A stretch of DNA of 54,112 nucleotides from a virus (taxonomy: Duplodnaviria; Caudoviricetes): IMG/VR virus record IMGVR_UViG_3300035704_000012, positions 1-54,112 of that record; one strand, given 5' to 3'. A program made the translations under genes and the position numbers. The notes beneath the pieces were generated by a model, which worked only from the letters and a program-made list of their open reading frames with translations, had not been told where the DNA came from and searched no databases. The first letter of the stretch is position 1, and the number at the start of each line of letters is the position of its first letter. Shown here one piece after another: positions 807-18,432 of the stretch.

Positions 807-2306
807 GTGGACAAACTCACCGAGGCGTTCTGGGCTAAGGTCGGGTACACGCCGCATGCTATGCAGCGGCTGTACCACGAAAGTGGTGCCAGATTCCGTG
901 TTCCGTGCTGCGGGAGGCGTTTCGGTAAGAGCACAATGGCCGCACGTGATGCCACGCCTAGGCATATTATGCGGCCGAATCAGATGATCTGGATTGTCGG
1001 ACCAACGTACGACCTTGCCGAGAAAGAGTTTCGTGTCATATGGAATGACCTCATTGTCAACCAAGGCCTTGGCAAGGATAAGAGGGTACGTAGAGCCTAT
1101 TCGAAGCGTGCGGGTGACATGTTCATTCAGTTTCCCTGGGGGACGCGAGTGGAATGTCGCAGCGCCGAACATCCAGAGTACCTCGTGGGGGAAGCCCTGG
1201 ACCACGTCATCATGTCCGAAGCTGCTAAGCACAAGCGTGAGACATGGGAACGCTACGTACGACCTGCGCTTGCTGACCGTAGGGGTTCCGCTGACTTCCC
1301 GACGACGCCTGAAGGTTTCAACTGGCTACATGACCTCTGGCAGCTTGGGCGTCAGGAGAGGTACCTAAAGAGGGGTATCTTCGAGTCCTGGAAGTTCCCA
1401 AGTTGGGCAAATGACGCCGTTTACCCTGGCGGACGGCAGGATGAAGAAATCCTTTTGCTAGAGGAAACCACCGAGCCTGAGTGGTTCCTGCAGGAGATTG
1501 GTGCAGACTTCGCCAGCTTCGTAGGGAAGATTTTCCCGGAGTGGGATGAGACCCGTCACGTGATGACGGAAGACTACAAGTTCATTCCCGGCTGGCCGAA
1601 CTACATTGCGTTCGACTGGGGCTTCACGAACCCTCTGGCCGCTGTCGAGTTCCAAATCAGCCCAAGCGATGAGATTTACGTTTGGCGAACGCATTACAAG
1701 AAGTACAAGACGATACCCGACCATATTCGTCTCATGATGCGTAGGGACCAGCCAGCTGGGTATCACATCGACTTGGCTTTTGGGGACCCCGCGGACCCAG
1801 AAGCGGCTGTACAGGTGTCGGAAGAGTTTAGAAAGCACAGCATGCACGTCATGTGTTGGGCGCCAAAGGAACTGAAGGGCGACTATACATGGCGTGATGG
1901 CATCGACTTGATGTCGAGTTTCATGCGCAACGTCAAGATAGCAGAGGACAAGTGGGGCGCTCCCATCGAGGCACCTCGCTACCACGTTGCGTGGGAATGC
2001 AAGGAACACATCAAGGAGATGAACAACTACCGCTCCACAGAGCCGGTAAAGGGACGCAATGTACCGGAACTGGGCAACAGGGTTGAGGACCATACCATCG
2101 ATGCAATGAGATATGCTCTCCTATGCCTATTCAAAATGGGCGCAAGGAATATGCACCTCAGAACCGGAATGGTTAACAGCGCCCCTGTGGAAGTTACGCC
2201 TAGGCAGAAGGCCGACAAGAGGGCATTGGACACGGAAACAAGCTTCGCTCAGATCCTAGCGGGCCAAGGTTCTGGTGGAATCTTTACGATGGGAGATAGC
2301 TTCTAG
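807..2306 (+). CDS. terL: Terminase large subunit
   Basis: Walker A CGRRFGKS, Walker B-like HVIMSEAA, coupling motif PTTP, nuclease motifs AFDWG and EDHTIDAMRY. Confidence 0.95.
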   Translation: MDKLTEAFWAKVGYTPHAMQRLYHESGARFRVPCCGRRFGKSTMAARDATPRHIMRPNQMIWIVGPTYDLAEKEFRVIWNDLIVNQGLGKDKRVRRAYSKRAGDMFIQFPWGTRVECRSAEHPEYLVGEALDHVIMSEAAKHKRETWERYVRPALADRRGSADFPTTPEGFNWLHDLWQLGRQERYLKRGIFESWKFPSWANDAVYPGGRQDEEILLLEETTEPEWFLQEIGADFASFVGKIFPEWDETRHVMTEDYKFIPGWPNYIAFDWGFTNPLAAVEFQISPSDEIYVWRTHYKKYKTIPDHIRLMMRRDQPAGYHIDLAFGDPADPEAAVQVSEEFRKHSMHVMCWAPKELKGDYTWRDGIDLMSSFMRNVKIAEDKWGAPIEAPRYHVAWECKEHIKEMNNYRSTEPVKGRNVPELGNRVEDHTIDAMRYALLCLFKMGARNMHLRTGMVNSAPVEVTPRQKADKRALDTETSFAQILAGQGSGGIFTMGDSF

Positions 2307-4186
2307 TGAACATGGACGAACTCCCACGTGTCTCGTTGCAGGAGATGCTCAACCAAGGCCTGCAGCCTGTAGCGGTCAGTCGCGAGCCTGGCAGGGAATT
2401 CATTGTCATGGCGCCGGAGGGTGGCGCAGCAGAACAGCTCCAAGGCACTCCAGTCACGCGTATGACGCCGCAAGAGCACTCCCAAATGATGTCGGAACGT
2501 GCAATGCAGATGACTGCTCCGCTTCGGCAGCAGGTTTCCGGGCTGGCAAGAAGGGGTAGGCCGCCTGAGGTCGATGGTTCGGGGTTGGGCTTCCCTCCGC
2601 CTCCGGACCAAGTCTTGGGGTTTGGACAGAACACAGGTGCAGTTAGGGTTCACAATCGTGTCGATATGGCACAGGGTAGGGGGGTCGGGCCTGAAGGTCT
2701 CGGTGCGGAACTGGGTTCTGCGTCTCCCTCGCCGTTCACCTCCTGGATGCGGCGGGAGTACAATCGTGACCTTGAGGGTATCAAGGGCCTCAAGGTATAC
2801 GACCGTATGCGGAAGTCGGACGGGACCGTAAGGGGGACGTTGAGGCTGGCTAAGACGCCAGTGCTGGCGGGGCAGTGGTCTATGAAACCAGCCTCAACGT
2901 CTACTAAGGATGTCATGATCCGCGACAAGATATGGAAGGCTTTGACTGACTGGCCTACCACTTCTTGGCCGCAGACGCTCACCGAGGGCCTGCTGATGCT
3001 GGACTTCGGCTACTACATGTTCGAGAATGTCTTCTGTCCAGGAGAGCAGCTCACCAACGACCCGGACGCTCGAGGCCTGATTGTCTGGAAGAAGTTCGCT
3101 CCTAGGCACCCGATGGATGTCAGGGAGTGGTTCTTCGACATTAACGGCGGACCCTTGTCGGTTGACATGTGGGAGCCTCCAGCTGATACGCGTTCCTTCG
3201 AGGGCGCTGTAGGACAGAGCTTCACTCAGATCGTGAACATTCCGATCAACAAGCTGGTTGTCCTCTCGTTCGACAAGGAAGCTGGCAACATCGAGGGCAT
3301 CAGCCTCCTCAGAAGCGCATACAAGCACTGGTACTACAAGGACAATCTGTACAAGATCGACGCAATCCAGAAGGAACGTCATGGTATTGGTGTACCTGTC
3401 GTCACGTTGCCAATGGGATACGACGACAACGATCTGCAGCTTGCCGATGCTCTTGGTCGCAATCTACGCACAAACGATCGGGCGCATGTAGTCCTACCGC
3501 CGAACTGGTTGCTTAGCTTCGCCGAGCTCAAGGGTCAGCCTGTCAACTGCATTACCAGCATCGAGCATCACGACAAGCAGATCGAGAAGCAGATCCTCGG
3601 CCAGTTCATGTCCTCGACTACGACAGGGAGTGATGAACAGTCTCACACCCTGTTCCTGAAGGCGACGAGGTTCACAGCCGACATCGTGGTCGACGCGATT
3701 AATAAGTATGCAATACCTCAGCTGGTAGACATGAACTGGCTAGGTGCGAGGTACCCCAAGCTAGTCGTGAAGCGGATCGGCGAGCAGGAGGACTGGAGGA
3801 CCGAGTCCTTCACAATCCGGAACTACATCGGCGCTGGAGCGATCACACCTGACGAGCCACTCGAGAACTACCTGCGTGAGGAACTAGGCCTACCTCAGGC
3901 AGACCCAGCGACCAGCAGACTTGTCGCCACGCAATTCAACAGGCAGGATGCTCCTGGGCCACCGATCGAGATGCCTGGTTCGCCAGAGGACCTAATACAG
4001 GCGCTCAAGGATGGTACGATCACCATGGAGCAACTCCAGCAGATGGCCAATCAGCAACCAGCAGCTAGTGGTCAGCAGCAAGGTCCCGACAAGCCTGGTA
4101 CACCGAGGCAGACAGCCAATCCGACCGTCAAGCCCTCGACTGGCAGCGGCGATGGTTCGGGCACATCCGGAAGGAGAGGACAGTAG
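2306..4186 (+). CDS. Portal protein (Mu gp29/DUF935-like)
   Basis: Follows terL; GISLLRSAYKHWYYK and ERHGIGVPV motifs; low-complexity N- and C-terminal extensions. Confidence 0.88.
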   Translation: MNMDELPRVSLQEMLNQGLQPVAVSREPGREFIVMAPEGGAAEQLQGTPVTRMTPQEHSQMMSERAMQMTAPLRQQVSGLARRGRPPEVDGSGLGFPPPPDQVLGFGQNTGAVRVHNRVDMAQGRGVGPEGLGAELGSASPSPFTSWMRREYNRDLEGIKGLKVYDRMRKSDGTVRGTLRLAKTPVLAGQWSMKPASTSTKDVMIRDKIWKALTDWPTTSWPQTLTEGLLMLDFGYYMFENVFCPGEQLTNDPDARGLIVWKKFAPRHPMDVREWFFDINGGPLSVDMWEPPADTRSFEGAVGQSFTQIVNIPINKLVVLSFDKEAGNIEGISLLRSAYKHWYYKDNLYKIDAIQKERHGIGVPVVTLPMGYDDNDLQLADALGRNLRTNDRAHVVLPPNWLLSFAELKGQPVNCITSIEHHDKQIEKQILGQFMSSTTTGSDEQSHTLFLKATRFTADIVVDAINKYAIPQLVDMNWLGARYPKLVVKRIGEQEDWRTESFTIRNYIGAGAITPDEPLENYLREELGLPQADPATSRLVATQFNRQDAPGPPIEMPGSPEDLIQALKDGTITMEQLQQMANQQPAASGQQQGPDKPGTPRQTANPTVKPSTGSGDGSGTSGRRGQ

Positions 4187-5250: not shown

Positions 5251-7935
5251 GTGACTACAGTCACCCACGCAGGTACTGGGATCTGGACCACGACTGCAGG
5301 CAACAAGACGTTCACTGGTACTCCTGCGGTGAACGACTTGATTGTAGTCGTTGCTCCCTGTACGCGCTCTGGTGGGACGACTAACGTCACAGACAACAAC
5401 TCCGATGGTAACGGCACATATACCAAGATCGGAGCGAGCTTTACTGGGTTTTCTACTGCTGGTGATCTTAGTGTCTGGGTACGTAATGCACTAGTTGGCT
5501 CTGCTACCTCTACTGTCTTCACAGCGGCTCAGGCTAGCTCTACTGGTGGCGGCCTGGATGTGTTTCGCATCTCTGGAATGGCTCGCGTTGGATCGGACGC
5601 AGTTAGGCAGTCAGCAGGACAATCGTCGGGGACATCTGGTACTACGCCTGCACCTGTTTTTGGCGTAGCTGCTTTGACTGGCAATCCATGCATCGGCTGC
5701 GTTTGTAATGGTACTAGCCCTGCCACATTGACTCCTCGTACAAGTTGGACTGAGGCTACTGACCTAGGTTACTCCACACCTACTACGGGCATGGAGACCA
5801 TGTCCCGGAGTTCGGGCGAGACAGGAACGACTCAGACGTGGGGCAGCACGTCAGCTAGTACGTTCGCCAGCGTCGTCGTCGAGCTCGATTCATCCGTTCC
5901 TCCTCTAGGTCTTGCAGGTACAGCTTCGAACTCTCCTGGGGTTGCAGGATGGTCAATCCTTCAGTCGAACAGTACCGACCCTGACCCTGGATCAGGTGCA
6001 CTAGCATATAGCACGGCCAACGTACAATCTGGCACCAAGTTGATTGCCTATATCACTTGCGGGGGAGGCAGCAACCCCGAGGTCACGGCGATGAAGGATG
6101 CCTCTCTCAACTCCATGACCAAGCTCGCGTCAGCATTCCTGAATGGGTCAGCAGGCAGTGGTGAGTTGAGCATGTGGGCAATGGACACGCCTGCAGGCGA
6201 TGTAGGTACCAAGCCGACTATCACGCCTACGATGACAGGTGGTAACCAGTCGCTTGGTCTTGTCATTCAGGAAGTCGCAGGCTTGCTAGCAGGTAATACG
6301 ACTGCGATGCTTGATGGTACGCCTGCGACGAACACTGGCGCGATTAGCAGCAACGGTAGTGTAAGTTGCGGTGCATATAGCTCTACTGCGTCAGGGGAGC
6401 TCCTCTTTGCGCTTGGTGGTGACAACGAGGTCAGTACCCTCACGTGGGCGGCACCGACAGGCTCCACAACGTATACACGTGACGCTCATGCAGTCAATAC
6501 TAGCTTCGTGTTCAACTGCGTGCCCTCGTCAGGTCTTTCGACTGGAGGAGCAGAGACAGCCTCGTCTGCGATAACGGGTGTCAGCGGTTCTAGCGCTTGG
6601 GCTACTATACTAGGCGCGTTCAAGCTTGCACCTGTATCAGGCTTGCAAGCAGCCAATGGCGACATCACTTCCGGTGCCAGTTCGACGACTTGGGCTATAG
6701 CTGGTACAGCTTCCAATACCAGTACAGGCTCTGGCAGTCTTAACCTTGTATCACCCGCAGCAGGAACTGCATCAACTACCTCTCACGCGTCAGGTTCGTT
6801 TACACCCCAGACGCTAGCAGGTACAGCTGCAACCACTTCACATGCTTCTGGCACGTTGGCCGTAGTCACACCCGTAGGTGGTACTAGTACAAACACAAGC
6901 GTGGCGTCGGGTACTCTGTCGCTGACAATGGGCCTAGCTGGTACGGCTTCTAATACAAGTGTCACTTCAGCTACAACAACGTTGCTTGCAGCCATTAGAG
7001 GCACTGCAGCTAACGTCAGCATAGCTAGCGGCATCTTGGCACTCATCCTCACACTAGCCGGTACAGCTACAAGTGTCTCTACAGCTACAGGTTCCTTCCC
7101 TCTCACAATCTCGGGCACATCCGTAACGACTAGCGCGGCTAACGGTTCCTTCACTATCACCGCTCCTGTGGCTGGAATTTCGTCAACCCTGAGTGGGGGG
7201 ACGGGAAGCCTAACCATACATGGTCTGGTACCACTGGCTGGTACAGCTGCGACTGTAAGCCATGCTAATGGTAGCCTGTCACTGCTTCTGACGTTGTCTG
7301 GCACAGCTACTAGTACGTCTTTGACTTCAGGCAATCTGACTACCGGGACACCACCCCGTACGCCGCAGCATCTGTCAGGTACTATTACCGAGACCAACCT
7401 ACTAGGTGGTACGGTCACAGGTAACCTACGTGGTGGCACAGTCGTAGGCAACCTGCTTAGTGGCACGGTCATAGGTAACTTGCGTGGTGGCACCGTTACA
7501 GATACCAACCACTTGTCTGGTTCGGTCGCAGATGCCAATCTCTTGGGAGGGACAGTTTCCGTTCTTCCTGTTACCAGCGGGTCACTAGAGGAGTGGACCA
7601 TGCAAGAAGTAGATATCATTCTCGGCGAGTTCAACGACGAGACTCTAGCCGTTGCTGTCTTGAACAACGGTGTCGCGCAGGACCTCACGGGCAAGACACT
7701 ACAGGCTCTGTTCAAGACCGCCGCAGGTGTTCTCGATACCGATCCATCAACGGTTACGCTGACTTCGTCTAGCGGTGGCATTGTCGTCACGAACGCCGTA
7801 GGTGGTTTGGCAACGATTACCATTCCTCGTGCCGACTTGGCGTCTGCTGGAGTCACGTTTTGGCGCCTCGACGTCGTTGCAGCAGGACTACAGAACACGG
7901 CTATGTATGGGAAGGTGTCTATTACTCTACTGTAA
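5251..7935 (+). CDS. 894-aa Thr/Ser/Gly-rich fibre/adhesin-like virion protein
   Basis: Two N-terminal beta-rich domains, ~19-aa AGTAxxTSxAxGxL repeats, 9-aa NLxGGTVxG repeats, and a BppU-like C-terminal domain. Confidence 0.65.
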   Translation: MTTVTHAGTGIWTTTAGNKTFTGTPAVNDLIVVVAPCTRSGGTTNVTDNNSDGNGTYTKIGASFTGFSTAGDLSVWVRNALVGSATSTVFTAAQASSTGGGLDVFRISGMARVGSDAVRQSAGQSSGTSGTTPAPVFGVAALTGNPCIGCVCNGTSPATLTPRTSWTEATDLGYSTPTTGMETMSRSSGETGTTQTWGSTSASTFASVVVELDSSVPPLGLAGTASNSPGVAGWSILQSNSTDPDPGSGALAYSTANVQSGTKLIAYITCGGGSNPEVTAMKDASLNSMTKLASAFLNGSAGSGELSMWAMDTPAGDVGTKPTITPTMTGGNQSLGLVIQEVAGLLAGNTTAMLDGTPATNTGAISSNGSVSCGAYSSTASGELLFALGGDNEVSTLTWAAPTGSTTYTRDAHAVNTSFVFNCVPSSGLSTGGAETASSAITGVSGSSAWATILGAFKLAPVSGLQAANGDITSGASSTTWAIAGTASNTSTGSGSLNLVSPAAGTASTTSHASGSFTPQTLAGTAATTSHASGTLAVVTPVGGTSTNTSVASGTLSLTMGLAGTASNTSVTSATTTLLAAIRGTAANVSIASGILALILTLAGTATSVSTATGSFPLTISGTSVTTSAANGSFTITAPVAGISSTLSGGTGSLTIHGLVPLAGTAATVSHANGSLSLLLTLSGTATSTSLTSGNLTTGTPPRTPQHLSGTITETNLLGGTVTGNLRGGTVVGNLLSGTVIGNLRGGTVTDTNHLSGSVADANLLGGTVSVLPVTSGSLEEWTMQEVDIILGEFNDETLAVAVLNNGVAQDLTGKTLQALFKTAAGVLDTDPSTVTLTSSSGGIVVTNAVGGLATITIPRADLASAGVTFWRLDVVAAGLQNTAMYGKVSITLL

Positions 7936-7968
7936 CAATGAAACCCTGAGCCCTAGTGGTATCTTAAG

Positions 7969-7984
7969 GTTTCCCGATATAATG
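7969..7984 (+). promoter_or_regulatory. Second copy of the putative late promoter
   Basis: Exact GTTTCCCGATATAATG upstream of the head operon, followed by RBS AGGAG. Confidence 0.7.
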
Positions 7985-8002
7985 AAGAGAATAGGAGTCT
8001 AG

Positions 8003-8332
8003 ATGTCCGTTTACGCCCCTAGTGGGTCAGGCAACGTACACGTCGACAAGGTCATGAGCGGAGGTAGGAAGCAAGTGCCACCTAGGAAGCCGGCAGCCAA
8101 GAAGCCTGCCACCAAGAAGGTGCCAGCCAAGAAGGGGATGGGCTTTCCCGCTGCCGCTGCTGCTGCCGGTAAGTCCTCCGGCAAGGGACCGAGGGCGGGG
8201 GCGGCGATAGTAGCTGCGGCCTCTCGTAAGGCCAGCCCCGCGGCCAAAAAGGCCAATCCCAACCTGAAGAAGGTCGCTATGCCCAAGACCAGGGGCAAGA
8301 TGGGCGGCAAGAAGGGTGGGAGAGGCAAGTGA
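8003..8332 (+). CDS. Lys/Ala-rich basic protein with a capsid-like N-terminus
   Basis: RBS AGGAG; H1-like PAAKK/PAKK repeats; N-terminal YAPSGSGNVHxD shared with the major capsid protein. Confidence 0.8.
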   Translation: MSVYAPSGSGNVHVDKVMSGGRKQVPPRKPAAKKPATKKVPAKKGMGFPAAAAAAGKSSGKGPRAGAAIVAAASRKASPAAKKANPNLKKVAMPKTRGKMGGKKGGRGK

Positions 8333-9480
8333 GTCGCTACGGGTACTGGGTCGATCTGGCGAACCACCAGTTCGACGAGCAGTCGTGGGTTCACGCACTC
8401 CCTGTCGGCAAGTTCGAACACCCCGTGTACGGTCCGATGGACTTCACGGCTGACAGGATCCAGCGTTTCGCCGACAGCGTAAAGACGAAGGTGCGGGGTA
8501 TCGACCTCGACATCGACTACGATCACAAGGACCAGACCGGCAAGGCTGCTGGGTGGGTCCGGGACGCTGACGTGCGCGCCGACGGACTCTACCTTCAGGT
8601 CGACTGGACGAGCCCAGCCGCTGAGGCCCTCCGGAATCGGGAGTACAGGTACTTCAGTCCCGAGTTCGACGACGAGTGGACCGACGGTGCGGGAATCAAG
8701 CACACTGACGTCCTGTTCGGCGGTGCACTGACCAACAGGCCATTCCTGAAGAACCTTCTTCCGGTCAACCTGTCGGAGATCACAGATCCAACACCACAAG
8801 GAGGTCAGATGGACCCTGAGCAGATTCGACTGCTGCTGGGTCTCGGAAAGGACGCCACGGACGATCAGGTCAAGGCGAAGATTGCGGAGCTGACGGCCGG
8901 ACCGCCGGCGCCCACTCCGCCATCTGACCCACCTGTTCCGCCCGTACCGGCGCCCACGCCGACTCCCGAGCCTGTGCTCGCCGGAGCCGCACTGTCCGAG
9001 GTCATCACCAAGGCTCTCGCCGAGTCGCCGCTGGCCAAGCAGTTCGCCGAGATGGAGAAGAAGCTCGCCGCCGCTGAGTCGGGTCGGCAGCTGGCCGAGA
9101 CCCGCGACAGGCTCGCAGGCATCGTCGCCAACCAGGGGGGCAGGCAGTTCGTCCTCCCGCCGTCGGTCGTCAACGCTATCGCCGAGGGTACGACCCTCGC
9201 CGAGCCATCCGCGATGGCCAAGAAGTTCGTCGACGCCGTCGAGCAGTTCGCCAAGGTCGGCTTCGTCGAGCTCGGCGAGCGCGGTCGCATGGGTGGTCAC
9301 GGTACCGAAGTGTCGGCCCAGGCCGAACTGATGAAGGCCGTCAGTGCGACGCGAACCAAGTACCTGTCGGAGACAGGCAAGGAGCTGGCCGTGACGGACG
9401 CGATCCGCATGGTCTGCACCGCCAACCCCGACCTGTACCTCGCCTACCGCGAGGGCAGCTACTCCGGAAGGGAGGCGTAA
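8329..9480 (+). CDS. Prohead protease/scaffold (Mu I-like)
   Basis: IDYDH, AAGW, YRYFSPEF and GGALTNRPF protease motifs; Pro-rich linker and helical scaffold; possible internal start at MDPEQ after GGAGG. Confidence 0.88.
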   Translation: MSRYGYWVDLANHQFDEQSWVHALPVGKFEHPVYGPMDFTADRIQRFADSVKTKVRGIDLDIDYDHKDQTGKAAGWVRDADVRADGLYLQVDWTSPAAEALRNREYRYFSPEFDDEWTDGAGIKHTDVLFGGALTNRPFLKNLLPVNLSEITDPTPQGGQMDPEQIRLLLGLGKDATDDQVKAKIAELTAGPPAPTPPSDPPVPPVPAPTPTPEPVLAGAALSEVITKALAESPLAKQFAEMEKKLAAAESGRQLAETRDRLAGIVANQGGRQFVLPPSVVNAIAEGTTLAEPSAMAKKFVDAVEQFAKVGFVELGERGRMGGHGTEVSAQAELMKAVSATRTKYLSETGKELAVTDAIRMVCTANPDLYLAYREGSYSGREA

Positions 9481-9483
9481 CCC

Positions 9484-9945
9484 ATGCCGGGTATGGACCA
9501 CCTTCTCACCAAGGCCTTCCTGGCCACCGGCGGAGCTGTCGCCTACAAGCAGTTCCAGGTCGTCAAGCAGGTCGCCGAGTCGACGCTGCAGCCGGCCCAG
9601 TGCGCGGTCATGACGGCAGCCGACACTTCGCCCGTGCTCGGTGTCGTTCAGGAACCGCTCGACGCTGTCAAGACGGCAACGGGCAAGGCGTTCGTCGGAG
9701 TGGCGCTCTCGGGCAACACCAAGGTGATCGTCGGAGTCACTACCAACATCGCCATCGGCAAGTTCGTCGTACCGTCGGCGACTGTCGCAGGAGCTGTCGA
9801 TGCTCTCGCGGCCAACCTGGGCGCAGGGCTGTACGTCGTCGGCAAGATCATCGGCGTCGGCGGTAACTCGATTGGTCAGGCCGTCACGGCTGGTGACCTG
9901 ATCGACATCGAGCTGCTGCCCGGCCACGTCGTCTACGCCAGCTAG
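9484..9945 (+). CDS. Capsid decoration/cement protein
   Basis: Lies between scaffold and MCP; VLGV...IAIG...AGDLIDIEL pattern. Confidence 0.7.
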   Translation: MPGMDHLLTKAFLATGGAVAYKQFQVVKQVAESTLQPAQCAVMTAADTSPVLGVVQEPLDAVKTATGKAFVGVALSGNTKVIVGVTTNIAIGKFVVPSATVAGAVDALAANLGAGLYVVGKIIGVGGNSIGQAVTAGDLIDIELLPGHVVYAS

Positions 9946-9959
9946 GAAGGAGGAAGTCA

Positions 9960-11093
9960 ATGCCCATCTACGCACCGTCAGGATCCGGCAACGTCCACAT
10001 CGACGTTGTGCTCACGCAGATCAGCGTGGCGTGGCCGAACGAAGGGCTGGTCGGACAGGTCCTCTTTCCGTCGGTCCCGGTCAACAAGCAGTCCAACAAG
10101 TACTACATCTTCCAGGGTCGCGAGGGCTGGTACCCGGCACTCGACGACGCCAGAGCTCCCGGTTCCGAGGCCAACGAGATTCCCGGCCTCACGGTTTCGA
10201 CCGGAAGCTACTACTGCCAGGAGCACGCGCTCCAGATCGCGGTCACCGACGAGGAGAGGGAGAACGCGGACAGTCCGCTGTCGCCCGACGTCGACGGCGC
10301 CGAGATGCTGGCCAGCAGGGTGGCTCTCGGCAAGGAGTACCGGATCTACAACCTGGTCACGACTGCGGCGAACTACCCCTCCGCGCTCACGCAGGCACTT
10401 CCTGGAACCGTGTCAGGCACGGGACAGTTTCCTGCCTCCATCCAGTGGGACCTGGTCAACTCGCAGCCTGTCAAGGACATCAGGATCGCGATGCGGGCGC
10501 TCCACAGGACCTCGTTCCTGAACGCCAACCTCGCCATCATCCCCTACCTGGTGATGTCCGCTCTCGAGGACAACCAGGACTTCATCACTCGCATCCAGTA
10601 CGTCGAGCGTGCCATCCTGACGCCCGACCTGGTCGCGTCGCTCTTGTCGCTGAGCAACGTCGTCGTGCCGGGCTTCGGCATCGCGACTAACAACCCCGGC
10701 CAGACGCTGGCGCTGTCGTACCTCTGGAACAAGGAAGTGCTGCTGGCGTACAACCCGCCGCGGCCCGGCCTCAAGGTGCCTGCCTACGGGTACCAGTTCA
10801 CGCAGGGTTACAGCGGCGGCGGGGGAGGCGGCCTCGGCTTCGGCTCTGGCGCGTTCTCAGGCGAAGGGATCGACAACGGTCCGGGTGGGAACCTCAACCC
10901 GACCAGCGGCGACACCTCCAGGTCGAGCAACCTCACAGGGAGCATCGTCGACAGGTGGCGGGAAGAGCGTCGAGCTTCCGACGTCGTCCGTCTCCGTCAG
11001 CGGTACGACCTCGAGCTGATCGGGCTCGACACCAACAACAAGTCCATCTGCGGCTTCCTGTTCACCACTGCCGTGTCTGCCGCGATCACCTAG
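9960..11093 (+). CDS. Major capsid protein (lambda E-like)
   Basis: HIDVVLTQIS, FPSVPV, RAPGSEA and C-terminal GFLF motifs; strong RBS; high GC3. Confidence 0.9.
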   Translation: MPIYAPSGSGNVHIDVVLTQISVAWPNEGLVGQVLFPSVPVNKQSNKYYIFQGREGWYPALDDARAPGSEANEIPGLTVSTGSYYCQEHALQIAVTDEERENADSPLSPDVDGAEMLASRVALGKEYRIYNLVTTAANYPSALTQALPGTVSGTGQFPASIQWDLVNSQPVKDIRIAMRALHRTSFLNANLAIIPYLVMSALEDNQDFITRIQYVERAILTPDLVASLLSLSNVVVPGFGIATNNPGQTLALSYLWNKEVLLAYNPPRPGLKVPAYGYQFTQGYSGGGGGGLGFGSGAFSGEGIDNGPGGNLNPTSGDTSRSSNLTGSIVDRWREERRASDVVRLRQRYDLELIGLDTNNKSICGFLFTTAVSAAIT

Positions 11094-11106
11094 GGAGGAG
11101 GAAACT

Positions 11107-11520
11107 ATGGCAATCCAGCATGTCGCGTACACCAACGGTCTCCGGACCAAGAATGCGGAGGAAGGCGAGGGCCTGATCGAGGTAGGCGGCGACGTCAACC
11201 CCGACATGTTCGAGCCCGAGGACTGGAACTATCACCTCGTACACGGCAACGTCGTCCGCAAGGGCGGGCCGAACGATCCCGAAGTGCTCGCCGCGGCTCT
11301 CGAGCCGGAGGAGGTCGACGAGGCCAACGAGGACCCGCTCGTCACGGAGAACAGGCGCCTCCGCGAGGCGCTAGCGCTCTACACGGGCCGCGGTGTCAGT
11401 CCTGCTCCTGGCGACCATCTCAGCGACGTCGCTCAGGCCGAGGAAGAGGCTCAGGCCGAAGAGGACAGGAAGCCTTCTGTCCCCAAGGCGCCAGCTACCA
11501 AGTCTGACGACAACAAGTAG
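11107..11520 (+). CDS. Hypothetical head-associated protein
   Basis: RBS GGAGGAGG; directly follows the MCP. Confidence 0.7.
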   Translation: MAIQHVAYTNGLRTKNAEEGEGLIEVGGDVNPDMFEPEDWNYHLVHGNVVRKGGPNDPEVLAAALEPEEVDEANEDPLVTENRRLREALALYTGRGVSPAPGDHLSDVAQAEEEAQAEEDRKPSVPKAPATKSDDNK

Positions 11521-11538
11521 CGGGAGGAGGTAGCCTTC

Positions 11539-12021
11539 GTGACACTGCATATCACAGCTAGCATGGTACAAACGTGGTTGGAACCCACGAAGGCTACCAT
11601 CTCCGCTGTCGATCCTGTCTTGGAAGGTCAGATCTCCAGCGAGGTCCTAGGCAGGCTAGCACAGACCTTCACACAGTCAGTAGTAGCGACTTGGGTCGAC
11701 ACTACTACCACACCTGCAGTCGTACAGCAAATCATTGCCATGTATTACGCGGGCTGGTTCTATGATCGTGCCTTCGCAGAGGTCGTCACCGATGAGAGCC
11801 AGACATCTTACGGAGCAACCCTTAGGAACTGGGCATCAACGCTGCTAGCTGACGTGATTCGAGGTGCAGTCGAGCTAGCCGATGTAGTTACAATACCGAA
11901 CGCTGGAGTGACGTTCTATCCCACAGACGCAAGCTCGACGAGGGACGCACTCCGTGCCAATACCGATTGCAACGACTTGTCGTTGGGGCCGGCTAAGTTC
12001 GGAATGAGTAAGGTGTTCTGA
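11539..12021 (+). CDS. Head-to-tail adaptor (Mu gp36-like)
   Basis: Position; TPAVVQQIIAMYYAG motif. Confidence 0.6.
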   Translation: MTLHITASMVQTWLEPTKATISAVDPVLEGQISSEVLGRLAQTFTQSVVATWVDTTTTPAVVQQIIAMYYAGWFYDRAFAEVVTDESQTSYGATLRNWASTLLADVIRGAVELADVVTIPNAGVTFYPTDASSTRDALRANTDCNDLSLGPAKFGMSKVF

Positions 12022-15066: not shown

Positions 15067-18000
15067 GTGCCGCTAGGTGTCAGGGAAGTACTCCTGGTCG
15101 TACGTGCACAGAACATGGGTTCTGGCGTACTGCGGAATCTGGCGGGCGACTTCAACAACCTGAACGGGGCAGCCAAGAAGGCAGCTCAGCAGCAAATGCA
15201 GACAGGCTCGTCGCTCATGGCCGTCGGTGTAGCTATCGGCGCCGTCGGAGCGGCGGGCCTTGTCTTCTTGGGTAAGGCAACCTCTTCGGCGATCGAGTAC
15301 AACAAGCAAGTCGCCTTGACCAAGACACAGATGTATGGTGTCAAGGCTAGCTTCGATCAGGTGTCTGAAGCTGGTCTTGCCACTGCCAGGTCGATCGCAG
15401 TACCTCTGGATCAGATCCAGGGTGGTCTGTACGACATCTTCTCGTCGATGGATGTCAACCTTACACAGGCCAAGTTCCTCCTCAACAACTTCTCGAAGGA
15501 AGCTGTAGCAGGCCAGGTAGACCTCTCCACGGCAGAACGTGCCACTATTGGCATTTTGAATGCTTACGGGTTGAAGGTCCAGGATGTCACCAAGGTGCAG
15601 GACATCATGTTCAACCTGGTCAAGTACGGCGTTGGTACTTACGGTGACTTCGCCAACTCGATTGGTCGTGTAACGGGTCCAGCCGTTAGACAGAACCAGA
15701 CCTTCGAACAGACTGCAGCCTTGATGGCGTTCGTCACTAGGAACGGTCTGTCAGCTAGTCAGGCTGCCTCTACGGTTGGTCGTGCTCTCGATGCTCTAGG
15801 CAAGTCTCGTGACAAGGTCCAGAGTCTAGGTGCGACAGTTGAAGACGCCCTAGGTGTACAGACTGCACACAAGTTGGGCTTCACTCACGACCAGATGATC
15901 AAGGTCACGGACGCTGCTGGCAAGATGCTTCCGATCAACCAGATCATGACCAACCTGGGGATGGCTCTTAAGGGCTTGAACCCGACGCAGCTCAATGACG
16001 TCCTGACTACGATGTTCAAGGGCACTGGCGGAACGATTCAGGCGATGAGGTTCTTCGACATCGCCATTCACAACTTCGGCCAGTTGAACACCATGGTCGG
16101 CAACATGGCTAAGAGTAAGGGTGCACTCAAGGCCGCCTACGACATCATGTCGAACACACCTGCGGCTAAGATCCAACTGCTCAAGAACAACTTCCAGGCG
16201 TTCATGATCGTACTGGGGCAGCAGTTCCTTCCCATCGTGAAGGTAGTCGCGTCTGTTCTGGCAAACTTCTTCAAGTTCCTAGGTACGATTCCGAAGCCTT
16301 TCATTGCCATCATTGCCATCGTCATAGCTGTAGTGTCTGTCATGTTGGTGCTGACGGGTGTTGTCATGGTCGCTATAGGCGCATGGATGGTCTTCTCCGC
16401 GATCCTGGCCGCTACCGATATTGCCCTTGCGCCTATTGCACTTACGATCGGGCTCATCATTGCTGCCGTAGCTGCCTTGGCCGTTGCTGCGTATCTGATC
16501 TACAAGTACTGGGATCCGATCAGCAAGTGGTTCCACGACATGTGGTTCGACATGTGGCACTGGATCGATCACATCTGGTCGGCGATCGCCAACTCGATAT
16601 CCGATGCCTGGAACAACATCATGGGCGTGTTCAATCGGATCATGCACTTCATCTCAGGTAGCTTCGACCAGTGGTGGAAGACTCACGGTGAATCCGTCAA
16701 GGAGGTCTGGCACGCTGTCTGGGACAATGTCACAAGCGTTATCTCGGTAGCCTGGCAGATCATTGGTGGTATCATCAAGGTCGGTATGGCTGAACTAAAG
16801 TTCGCTTGGGATACAGGACTAGCCACAATTGAGCTCATATCCAAGACTGCATGGGCGATCATCGAGGGCATCTTCCGAATCGCTTGGACTATCCTATCGA
16901 ACGTATTCAAGATAGGCTGGGCAGAACTAATAGCCGTTGCGAAGATTGGTTGGGCAGGAATCACCTCAGTCGTGAAGATCGCTTGGGATGTGATAGTTGC
17001 CATCTTCAGCGTCTTCCTCGACATCCTAACGGGCCACTGGCATACAGCTCTAGTCGACATACAGAACCTAGGCAAGCAGATCTGGAACAATATCAAGGGC
17101 TTCTTGATTGCATCGTGGAACGCAATCAAGGGCGCTGCAGGTCCTATCTTCAATGCACTGAAGGCTATCGTCGTTAATGTCTGGCATTCGGTATACGATA
17201 CCACACAGTCTGTCTGGCACAACATCCTCAGCTTCCTGAATAGGGTCTGGGGTGACATGAAGTCGGGTGCTAGGTCGACTGTGAATGGTCTAAGTAGTAT
17301 CTGGCACGGAATCGAGAACATCTTCAGGGTTCCTGTCAACTTCGTGATCGGCACTGTCTACGACAACGGCATCAAGCGTCTCTGGAACGACGTCATGGGC
17401 GCTATTGGACTGAAGCGTTTCAACCTTCCGAACATCCCGATGATGGCTGCAGGTGGCAAGCTTCCTGGGTTCGGTGGCGGAGATGTAATTCCGGCACTAC
17501 TGGAAGGCGGCGAGACTGTTATTGACAAGCACAGGTCTCGTCAGTTCGGCTGGTTGTTCAGGATGATGGGTGTCAAGGGGTATCAGAGCGGCGGCCAGAT
17601 TCCACCTGCGGTTGCCAGGTTCGGTACTTCGGTCAATCCCACAGGGCCTGCTCTCGGACCTCTTCAGGGCATCCTCCACCTCGCTGGTGCTGCAGGTAAG
17701 ATGCTGATGGCAGCTGCGACTGGGAATGAGACGGCCTTCAGCAACGCACTCATAAGCGCACTTGGCATCAAGAGCGGTGCAGGAAGCCAGCTAGCTTCGA
17801 TGGCGGCTACTCTCCCTGTGGCACTTGCGAAGAAGGCAATCGGGGGCCTGTGGCATTCAATCACGGGCAGTGCTGGTGGGGCTGGTATTAACTACAAGGC
17901 CGGTGCAGGCGTTGCTCAGTGGCGAGGCTTGGTCCTACGTGCTCTTGGTATGGAGGGTTTGTCACCTTCACTCGTGGGTGCAGTACTCTACCAGATGCAA

Positions 18001-18432
18001 ACCGAGTCTGGCGGCAACCCACGTGCTATCAACTTGAGTGACATCAACGCTCAGCATGGCGACCCTTCTCGTGGCTTGATGCAGACCATCATGTCGACCT
18101 TCTTGGCCTACCATTGGCCCGGTACGTCGACGAACATCTACGACCCGCTAGCCAACATCGCAGCGGCCTTGAACTACGCTCGTCATGTGTACGGGCCTAC
18201 GTTGATGAGTGGCGGGCTAGGCATTGGCTCTGGTCACGGATACGCACTAGGTACGAACTGGGCTGCGCCAGGACATCATGTCGTAGGCGAGCATGGACCT
18301 GAAGTTGTCAGCATGCGCGGAGGCGAGCGCGTCACTCCAGGTGGACAGACGATCATCATCTACACCAACGAGATTAACCCGCGTAGGCATGCTGCCGAGC
18401 TGGGCTGGGAACTTGCAAGGAGGTCAGCGTGA
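15067..18432 (+). CDS. Tape measure protein with C-terminal lytic transglycosylase domain
   Basis: 1121 aa; TM segments; periodic Trp/Phe repeats; QTESGGNPRAIN...GLMQ SLT motifs. Confidence 0.93.
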   Translation: MPLGVREVLLVVRAQNMGSGVLRNLAGDFNNLNGAAKKAAQQQMQTGSSLMAVGVAIGAVGAAGLVFLGKATSSAIEYNKQVALTKTQMYGVKASFDQVSEAGLATARSIAVPLDQIQGGLYDIFSSMDVNLTQAKFLLNNFSKEAVAGQVDLSTAERATIGILNAYGLKVQDVTKVQDIMFNLVKYGVGTYGDFANSIGRVTGPAVRQNQTFEQTAALMAFVTRNGLSASQAASTVGRALDALGKSRDKVQSLGATVEDALGVQTAHKLGFTHDQMIKVTDAAGKMLPINQIMTNLGMALKGLNPTQLNDVLTTMFKGTGGTIQAMRFFDIAIHNFGQLNTMVGNMAKSKGALKAAYDIMSNTPAAKIQLLKNNFQAFMIVLGQQFLPIVKVVASVLANFFKFLGTIPKPFIAIIAIVIAVVSVMLVLTGVVMVAIGAWMVFSAILAATDIALAPIALTIGLIIAAVAALAVAAYLIYKYWDPISKWFHDMWFDMWHWIDHIWSAIANSISDAWNNIMGVFNRIMHFISGSFDQWWKTHGESVKEVWHAVWDNVTSVISVAWQIIGGIIKVGMAELKFAWDTGLATIELISKTAWAIIEGIFRIAWTILSNVFKIGWAELIAVAKIGWAGITSVVKIAWDVIVAIFSVFLDILTGHWHTALVDIQNLGKQIWNNIKGFLIASWNAIKGAAGPIFNALKAIVVNVWHSVYDTTQSVWHNILSFLNRVWGDMKSGARSTVNGLSSIWHGIENIFRVPVNFVIGTVYDNGIKRLWNDVMGAIGLKRFNLPNIPMMAAGGKLPGFGGGDVIPALLEGGETVIDKHRSRQFGWLFRMMGVKGYQSGGQIPPAVARFGTSVNPTGPALGPLQGILHLAGAAGKMLMAAATGNETAFSNALISALGIKSGAGSQLASMAATLPVALAKKAIGGLWHSITGSAGGAGINYKAGAGVAQWRGLVLRALGMEGLSPSLVGAVLYQMQTESGGNPRAINLSDINAQHGDPSRGLMQTIMSTFLAYHWPGTSTNIYDPLANIAAALNYARHVYGPTLMSGGLGIGSGHGYALGTNWAAPGHHVVGEHGPEVVSMRGGERVTPGGQTIIIYTNEINPRRHAAELGWELARRSA

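Follow-up and report, generated by a model that had tools for sequence, protein, structure and literature searches.

A small basic phage protein carries a copy of the N-terminus of the major capsid protein, a candidate head-addressing tag

A gene encoding a 109-aa basic protein (8003..8332, + strand) was identified whose N-terminus is a copy of the N-terminal motif of the major capsid protein (MCP) encoded by the same virus. The whole stretch of DNA analysed (the window; 54,112 bases) makes up a complete virus record. The copy, referred to here as the tag, is encoded by codons 1-18 of the small gene (8003..8056, +). The original of the tag is encoded by codons 1-18 of the MCP gene (9960..10013, +) and is a segment of the MCP N-arm without confident structure in the monomer model. 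The tag corresponds to the MCP N-terminus, originated in the MCP, is under purifying selection, has been kept when the body of the protein was swapped, and has been grafted independently onto a protease-scaffold protein. There are very few systems in which the addressing of internal proteins to the phage head is understood in detail, and the tag is discussed here as a candidate for such an address.

Gene organization of the head module

The genes encoding the terminase large subunit (807-2306), the portal (2306-4186) and the tape measure (15067-18432) were identified by PHROG matches, as were the genes for a DNA polymerase and a primase on the minus strand. An open reading frame (5251-7935, +) encoding an 894-aa Thr/Ser/Gly/Ala-rich repeat protein, which has no Pfam or PHROG match, separates the portal region from the head genes. 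Conservation of this protein in relatives is limited to its C-terminal ~190-410 residues (37-51% identity), and several relatives have no 894-aa gene at that position. The G+C content over the head genes (8001-12000) is 0.62-0.64, as compared with 0.52-0.60 in the rest of the genome.

The gene for the small basic protein comes after this repeat-rich open reading frame in the window, and directly after the portal gene in several relatives. An AGGAG Shine-Dalgarno sequence is present 6 nt upstream of its ATG, and its stop codon shares nucleotides with the GTG start codon of the following gene (GTGA at 8329-8332). The small gene had been described in the initial annotation as the first gene of the head operon; this position is not established, because 0 promoter-like and 0 terminator-like sites were found in 7700-11300.

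The following gene (8329..9480, +) encodes a fusion, called the protease-scaffold here, of a Mu-like gpI-type head maturation protease with a scaffold domain. This protein matches the Mu-like prophage protein I family of proteases (PF10123) with an E-value of 1.9e-29 and 103.7 bits, against a gathering cutoff of 25.2, and phrog_328 (head maturation protease) with an E-value of 2.1e-30. A 153-aa protein without Pfam or PHROG family is encoded between the protease and the MCP (9484..9945, +). Its position is conserved, the gene being syntenic in relatives with 32-89% identity, and this position suggests a head accessory role.

The MCP gene (9960..11093, +) encodes a protein of the HK97 fold, an assignment in which phrog_1005 (E 1.1e-56), the sequence match to PDB entry 3bjq (E 6e-11) and the structural model agree. 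The model (pTM 0.72) has 3bjq as its best Foldseek match (E 9.1e-19), with phage capsids and encapsulins as the next matches. A Gly-rich insertion with pLDDT <50 occupies residues 286-324 of the MCP (10815-10931 in the window). The 319-336-aa MCPs of sister clades are without this insertion, which explains the ~372-aa length in the clade of the window. Deposited phages show at most 31% identity with the MCP and no match with the small protein, and no close cultured relative was found among them; the lineage is known from metagenomes only. Acidimicrobiaceae was considered as the host on the basis of one MCP match on a MAG contig so labelled, obtained in a scan of species-representative genomes, but this single match is too weak for a host to be named.

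The N-terminal motif shared by the small protein and the MCP

Residues 4-13 of the small protein are identical to those of the MCP, a run of 10. Over the first 17 residues, 13/17 amino acids and 35/51 nucleotides are identical, and the codons of 7 of the 13 identical residues differ synonymously, six of them within the 10-residue run and the seventh at V17. The initial annotation had quoted the N-terminal peptides of the two proteins, ten consecutive identical residues and six pairs of synonymous codons within the run; the open reading frame sequences agree with it on each of these points. The match is far beyond chance, because an identical run of 10 residues occurs at an equal distance from both start codons. 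Scans of the window with regular expressions for the tag returned only two sites, one in the small protein and one in the MCP.

The tag motif of the small protein reads Y4-x-P-x-G-x-G-N-V-H-x-D15-x-[VI]-[MI], and the residues G8, G10, V12, H13 and D15 are invariant in the tags of 32 sequences. The pairing of an MCP with a tagged partner recurs in relatives, where at least 24 distinct pairs were found. The tags of partners differ consistently from those of the MCPs at positions 7, 14, 16 and 18; these differences (partner vs MCP) include S7 vs T7, V14 vs I14, and M/I18 vs L18. The two copies have therefore long evolved separately.

Selection on the motif

Sequence conservation was measured over 17 genomes (136 pairs). 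Codons 2-18 of the small protein, which encode the tag, show a mean amino acid identity of 0.85, and 55% of the codons for identical residues differ. The corresponding values for codons 2-18 of the MCP are 0.84 and 49%, whereas the mean identity falls to 0.26 over codons 19-35 of the small protein (linker, ungapped). The peptide is thus conserved and the synonymous sites are saturated, which argues for purifying selection on the protein. It follows from the same figures that neither recent gene conversion nor a nucleotide-level signal maintains the tag. The earlier statement that the match is kept at the protein level is borne out, as is a function of the match, by this selection on the tag, by the retention of the tag where the body of the protein has been replaced, and by the independent graft onto the protease-scaffold in another clade.

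Co-variation of the two N-termini, which had been put forward as a check on the initial proposal, is absent over the genome pairs. Cognate tags are identical at 10.42/15 positions on average, as compared with 10.29/15 for shuffled pairs, and 2476 of 10000 shuffles reached or exceeded the observed value. As judged from these alignments, both copies of the tag appear to track a common conserved partner and not each other. Matches at the level of clades are seen in both tags, such as N5 (L028/L099/L163), S5 (L102), G-A-G (L031) and I-Y-N-P-S (L013); these matches are anecdotal and confounded by phylogeny.

Origin of the motif

At least 119 stretches were returned when IMG/VR was scanned at the DNA level with a degenerate form of the motif. 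The sequence Y-x-P-x-G-x-G-N-V-H-x-D begins at residue 3-6 in at least 119 MCP open reading frames, which correspond to 49 representatives, and the motif-bearing family consists of HK97-fold MCPs of uncultured phages. Upstream sequence of 2.6 kb or more was available for 41 MCP loci that have no tagged partner within 4 kb among the matches listed. In 40 of these 41 loci no tagged partner was found anywhere in the fetched locus; the exception, L157, has one 6.2 kb upstream of the MCP. The direction of copying was from the MCP to the small protein, since the motif is family-wide in the MCPs and the tagged partner is absent in 40/41 loci. On the sequences compared, the motif is a family-wide feature of the MCP N-arm, and the possession of a second carrier is a derived, clade-restricted state.

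The MCPs of RDJL Phi 1 and Salgado, which are distant cultured relatives, contain the inner part of the motif only (H-x-[DN]-x-x-L-T-N-I-S). MCP relatives at 27-29% identity have a different N-terminus.

Organization of the small protein

The small protein contains 27 Lys and Arg residues among its 109 residues, with a pI of 12.0 and a net charge of +25.6. Its sole acidic residue is D15, in agreement with the earlier remark that no acidic residue occurs beyond this position. A search of 5.8 billion proteins yielded 303 candidate homologues, 173 of them with E<=0.001, and their alignment divides the protein into four parts: the 18-residue tag, a hypervariable linker, a core of ~50 aa and a variable basic tail. 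The linker (residues 19-42; 8057..8128, +) is rich in Gly, Lys, Arg, Pro and Ala and begins with a conserved small-residue G-G element. The basic core domain (residues 43-91; 8129..8275, +), delimited by the alignment of homologues, extends from KKGMGF to ANPNLKKV, and the tail (residues 92-109; 8276..8329, +) consists of a variable Lys/Gly/Arg sequence. In the window (8057-8068) and in homologues, the tag of the small proteins leads into a conserved [MI]-x-G-G and then into Lys/Arg. This junction is of the double-glycine type and is a candidate processing site; the G-G element is absent from the MCP.

The core is a block of ~50 aa in which M-G-F and A-N-x-N-L-x-x-V are invariant in the alignment, and it defines a protein family. 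An exhaustive search with the core profile identified 670 representative proteins at E<=0.001, 169 of which reached E<=1e-10, and the tag is present in 4 of the best 150 of these 670 matches. Most often the core stands alone as a protein of ~60 aa, or it forms the C-terminal end of a longer Lys-rich protein (up to 335 aa); no annotated domain was found in the longer forms. Core proteins noted beyond the window include P0036, P0041, P0099 and P0123-P0130. In a 41-kb phage contig of freshwater type, the gene for an untagged form has structural genes, including those for tail fibres, as its neighbours. In a 71-kb phage whose MCP is of the same family as that of the window, the gene for an untagged 69-aa form is close to the terminase and ~15 kb away from the MCP. 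Since most members of the core family have no tag, the tag is an addition to the core. The analysis thereby brings to light a widespread, unnamed basic phage domain of ~50 aa (670 representative clusters).

No family was found for the small protein in Pfam at E<=0.01 or in PHROG. Extension of the Pfam limit to E 10 gave just one chance-level DUF (E 1.7), and the PDB sequences gave nothing better than E 0.21. An Atlas search for the core returned unnamed viral clusters only, the nearest named family being DUF6496 (17% of members, score 0.78), which is below the lead threshold. The protein had been called histone-H1-like in the initial annotation. The likeness stands for its composition but does not extend to the winged-helix H1/H5 fold or another known histone-like fold, because the protein has no Pfam, PHROG or PDB sequence match. 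A comparison of the core A-N-P-N-L with the scaffold C-terminal N-P-x-L-Y revealed no likeness. A relationship between the small-protein and protease-scaffold families was also considered and rejected; their profile-profile match covers 15 columns, which are those of the tag, at a probability of 1.4%, and is attributed to chance.

Other carriers of the tag

Among the matches listed, the 24 distinct pairs comprise 18 in which the partner is a basic protein with the core, 4 in which the basic partner has no core and 2 in which the protease-scaffold is the partner. In the nearest relatives of the phage (L001/L002, MCP 90% identical), the tag is kept and the core is replaced by Lys/Pro/Ala-rich repeats. 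Tagged basic proteins without the core were also detected in L237, L245 and L246 in the metagenome scan. As far as these sequences indicate, the tag is modular and stays in place when the rest of the protein changes.

The metagenome scan for the partner-type tag yielded 26 stretches with 24 distinct open reading frames, comprising 18 proteins with the core, 3 basic proteins without it, 2 MCPs and 1 fragment of 13 residues. A protease open reading frame is located directly 3' of the tagged one in 16 of the 24. Adjacency to the protease is common but not obligatory, since the tagged core protein of L157 (minus strand) is encoded elsewhere, with no protease gene adjacent to it. All tagged small partners are polycations, with lengths of 87-189 aa. 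No enzyme or other unrelated cargo with the tag was found among the 24 metagenome open reading frames or the viral-scan matches listed.

A different carrier was identified in L102, L156 and L195, which have no small gene. In these genomes the protease-scaffold itself (L102:5219-6583, -; L156:2183-3550, +; L195:6783-8147, -) has a 75-residue N-terminal extension, and the first 26 residues of this extension copy the cognate MCP N-terminus. Over the 15-residue motif counted from Tyr, the L102-type extension and its own MCP still match at 14/15 amino acids and 38/45 nucleotides, and the tag on the protease-scaffold is therefore a separate, more recent graft. Residues ~30-69 of the extension contain Cys and His and are modelled as a small domain of three strands and a helix (pLDDT 75-79).

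The L108 clade (MCP 72% identical) encodes a 279-aa basic protein upstream of the protease (L108:606-1445, +), whose C-terminus is formed by the core and whose conserved N-terminal element differs from the tag. This element, D-H-V-P-A-H-x-F-A-x-x-T-x-P-R, was found in L108, in L159 and L196 (minus strand), and in P0028; the core is C-terminal in both the L108 protein and P0028. The L108-type element is possibly an address module of a second type. Since the L108 clade has another modular basic protein in the slot before the protease, this slot seems generally to accommodate proteins of that kind.

Structure prediction and the scaffold C-terminus

Residues 5-26 of the MCP monomer model have pLDDT <50, and the tag region of the MCP is presumably a free N-arm that needs a partner. 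In the model of the L102 tag-protease fusion, residues 1-19 and 24-28 have pLDDT <50, with values of 27-37 over the first 20 residues. Residues 30-69 of this model form a small folded domain, and the tag is not docked in cis. Prediction of a complex of the protease-scaffold, MCP residues 19-377 and small-protein residues 1-35, with their own alignments, gave a score of 0.00 in each of two runs and is given no weight for or against docking.

The C-terminal ~30 residues are the best-conserved part of the scaffold half. Among 37 sequences, A358 is conserved in 37/37, L369 in 35, P367 and Y373 in 34 each, and R374 in 33. The predicted net charges of the protease-scaffold and the MCP are -13.7 and -9.2, respectively.

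Proposed role of the tag

The reading that we favour is that the tag is a procapsid-incorporation signal derived from the MCP N-arm, and possibly also a protease propeptide, which loads a polycation into the head; we consider this proposal about evenly balanced between holding and failing. Residues 1 to ~18 of the small protein would be a functional copy of the tip of the MCP N-arm, and during assembly the tag would engage whatever that tip engages. The partner would most likely be the conserved C-terminal 'hook' of the protease-scaffold, and less likely a neighbouring MCP subunit. By analogy with P22, the invariant H13 and D15 of the N-arm tip would be held by the conserved scaffold C-terminus. 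The overlapping stop and start codons would bring about translational coupling, through which the small protein would be supplied in amounts matching the protease-scaffold. The polycation (+26) would thus be drawn into the head interior, where it could neutralise the charge of the DNA and/or exit with it, and the Mu-like protease may then remove the tag, as occurs with the capsid-targeting sequence (CTS) of T4. In this scheme we infer the binding partner, the encapsidation, the cleavage and the DNA-related role; condensation or shielding of the DNA, in particular, is suggested by the charge of the protein.

Incorporation through the tag is consistent with the conservation of the tag, which resembles that of an essential MCP segment (0.85, as compared with 0.26 for the next 17 codons), and, on the P22 analogy, with a near-invariant scaffold R374 that would lie opposite the invariant D15. 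It is likewise in line with the modularity of the tag, its second graft onto a protease-scaffold, its ancestral place in the MCP and later addition to the core, the unstructured N-arm of the MCP model, and the precedents of the P22 scaffold hook and the T4 CTS. Against it stand the lack of genome-by-genome co-variation of the two tags and the natural fusion, which in the model leaves the tag undocked in cis. The consistent S7/T7, V14/I14 and M/I18 vs L18 differences also count against it and could reflect a slightly different partner for the two copies. A broader form of the proposal is that the tip of the HK97-fold N-arm is a transferable encapsidation code, by which any protein bearing the first ~18 residues of the MCP would be co-assembled into the head lumen. 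The scaffold hook, or a capsomer, would then take the tagged protein for a capsid subunit, and the code would have been used at least twice, for polycations and for a protease. This generalization is tentative, and we lean somewhat against it. The portability of the tag is narrower than that of the T4 CTS, because the carriers found are polycations or the protease only.

A role of the motif as a protease-recognition propeptide only is unlikely in our judgement, but several features of the locus would fit it. The Mu-like protease would cut the MCP, the small protein and, in the L102 clade, itself, and the small protein would be a substrate, a competitive regulator or a decoy that tunes the protease, and not packaged cargo. 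Translational coupling of the small gene to the protease gene through the overlapping GTGA, a protease directly after 16/24 distinct tagged metagenome open reading frames, the tag on the L102-type protease itself and the conserved [MI]-x-G-G with basic residues after the tag, a possible cleavage site, all agree with such a function. A precedent is the N-terminal motif shared by the capsid and scaffolding proteins of 80alpha, which is cleaved according to the available part of PMC5744158. However, 15 conserved residues far exceed what a protease usually recognizes, the MCP is without the G-G element, the tagged gene of L157 lies 6.2 kb from the MCP and away from the protease, and a decoy need not be polycationic, yet all tagged small partners are. 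A cleavage-site consensus for this family of Mu-like proteases was not found in the literature searched. The small protein could instead be an assembly modulator that mimics the N-arm and acts on nucleation, curvature or scaffold release, without being retained with the DNA. It would occupy the N-arm contact sites on capsomers or scaffold, as external or internal size-determination proteins do. This role is in line with a tag that equals the tip of the N-arm in an HK97-fold MCP and with the contacts that N-arms mediate with scaffold and between subunits in model phages (as far as described in the accessible parts of PMC12005531 and PMC5744158), and a +26 protein could bridge the acidic scaffold (-13.7) and MCP (-9.2). 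A geometric role is nevertheless a poor fit to a body of 87-189 aa that can be replaced by any polycation, and most phages of this MCP family have no tagged partner among the matches listed; we therefore hold modulation to be quite improbable.

The figures on selection bear most directly on the proposal that the tag is a neutral remnant of a duplicated 5' gene segment, or that it has a nucleotide-level role in translation initiation. Both genes have a strong Shine-Dalgarno sequence and the match begins at the start codon, as would be expected. Against such an origin or role, the codons differ at 7/13 identical residues in the window and at 55% across genomes, the linker has diverged down to 26% identity, and independent grafts have arisen in different clades. 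This explanation is very improbable.

If the tag does direct incorporation, the loading of cargo that mimics the shell protein itself would represent a principle distinct from the T4 CTS and from the targeting peptides of encapsulins. Duplication of the 5' end of a capsid gene would then provide a simple evolutionary route to cargo loading. The tag would also pinpoint the part of the MCP that contacts the scaffold in this family, and would be a short, natural and minimal tag for filling HK97-type shells.

Comparison with known systems

Encapsulin cargo-loading peptides address proteins to the lumen of an HK97-fold shell; to our knowledge they are unrelated in sequence to the tag. The CTS of T4 directs proteins to the scaffolding core and is cleaved by gp21, and we know of no indication that it is a copy of the MCP N-terminus. 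The phage described here differs from T4 in that its tag is paralogous to the tip of its own MCP N-arm, its protease is a Mu-like one (PF10123), and polycations and the protease are the only candidate cargo seen; targeting and cleavage are putative. The likeness to T4 lies in a short N-terminal peptide that is conserved on diverse, largely basic head-internal proteins, IPI-IPIII. The T4 CTS loads these diverse internal proteins into the head and is able to carry foreign proteins, according to the part of PMC3012670 that was available.

In 80alpha, the capsid and scaffolding proteins share an N-terminal motif that mimics the host ribosomal protein L27 and that the host protease Prp cuts between F and A; the motif is essential on the scaffold and dispensable on the capsid protein, and it is also present on non-homologous proteins of other phages (available portion of PMC5744158). 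In both systems the MCP and a second head-interior protein bear the same N-terminal peptide. Unlike the 80alpha motif, the tag lacks F-A; the protease gene is part of the operon itself, and a polycation takes the place of the scaffold as second carrier, except in the L102 clade. An 80alpha-type leader ending in F/A was not found, the 18-residue tag being without Phe.

In P22, the scaffold hook residues Arg293 and Lys296 meet the coat N-arm residues Asp14, Glu15 and Glu18 (PMC12005531, accessible sections). An acidic residue at about position 14-15 of the N-arm (here D15) and a basic scaffold C-terminus (here R374) are common to both phages, the contact being a predicted one in the present case, but there is no sequence relation. 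Loading of other proteins through N-arm copies is not reported for P22 in the same sections of PMC12005531. The Dar proteins of P1 are likewise directed into an HK97-fold shell, where they touch its inner surface or the DNA, but DarA binds capsomers through its own domains and not through an MCP-derived peptide (PMC12810830, in the part available).

The initial annotation knew of no description of the arrangement, a statement that calls for qualification. N-terminal addressing to the head has been described for T4 (PMC3012670), and a shared N-terminal motif for 80alpha (PMC5744158), each as given in the parts available. For a tag paralogous to the MCP N-arm on an internal protein, the openly accessible main texts searched contained no precedent closer than these two. 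N-terminal addressing itself is thus known, and what is apparently new is a tag that is paralogous to the tip of the MCP's own N-arm and has been grafted repeatedly onto polycations and a protease.
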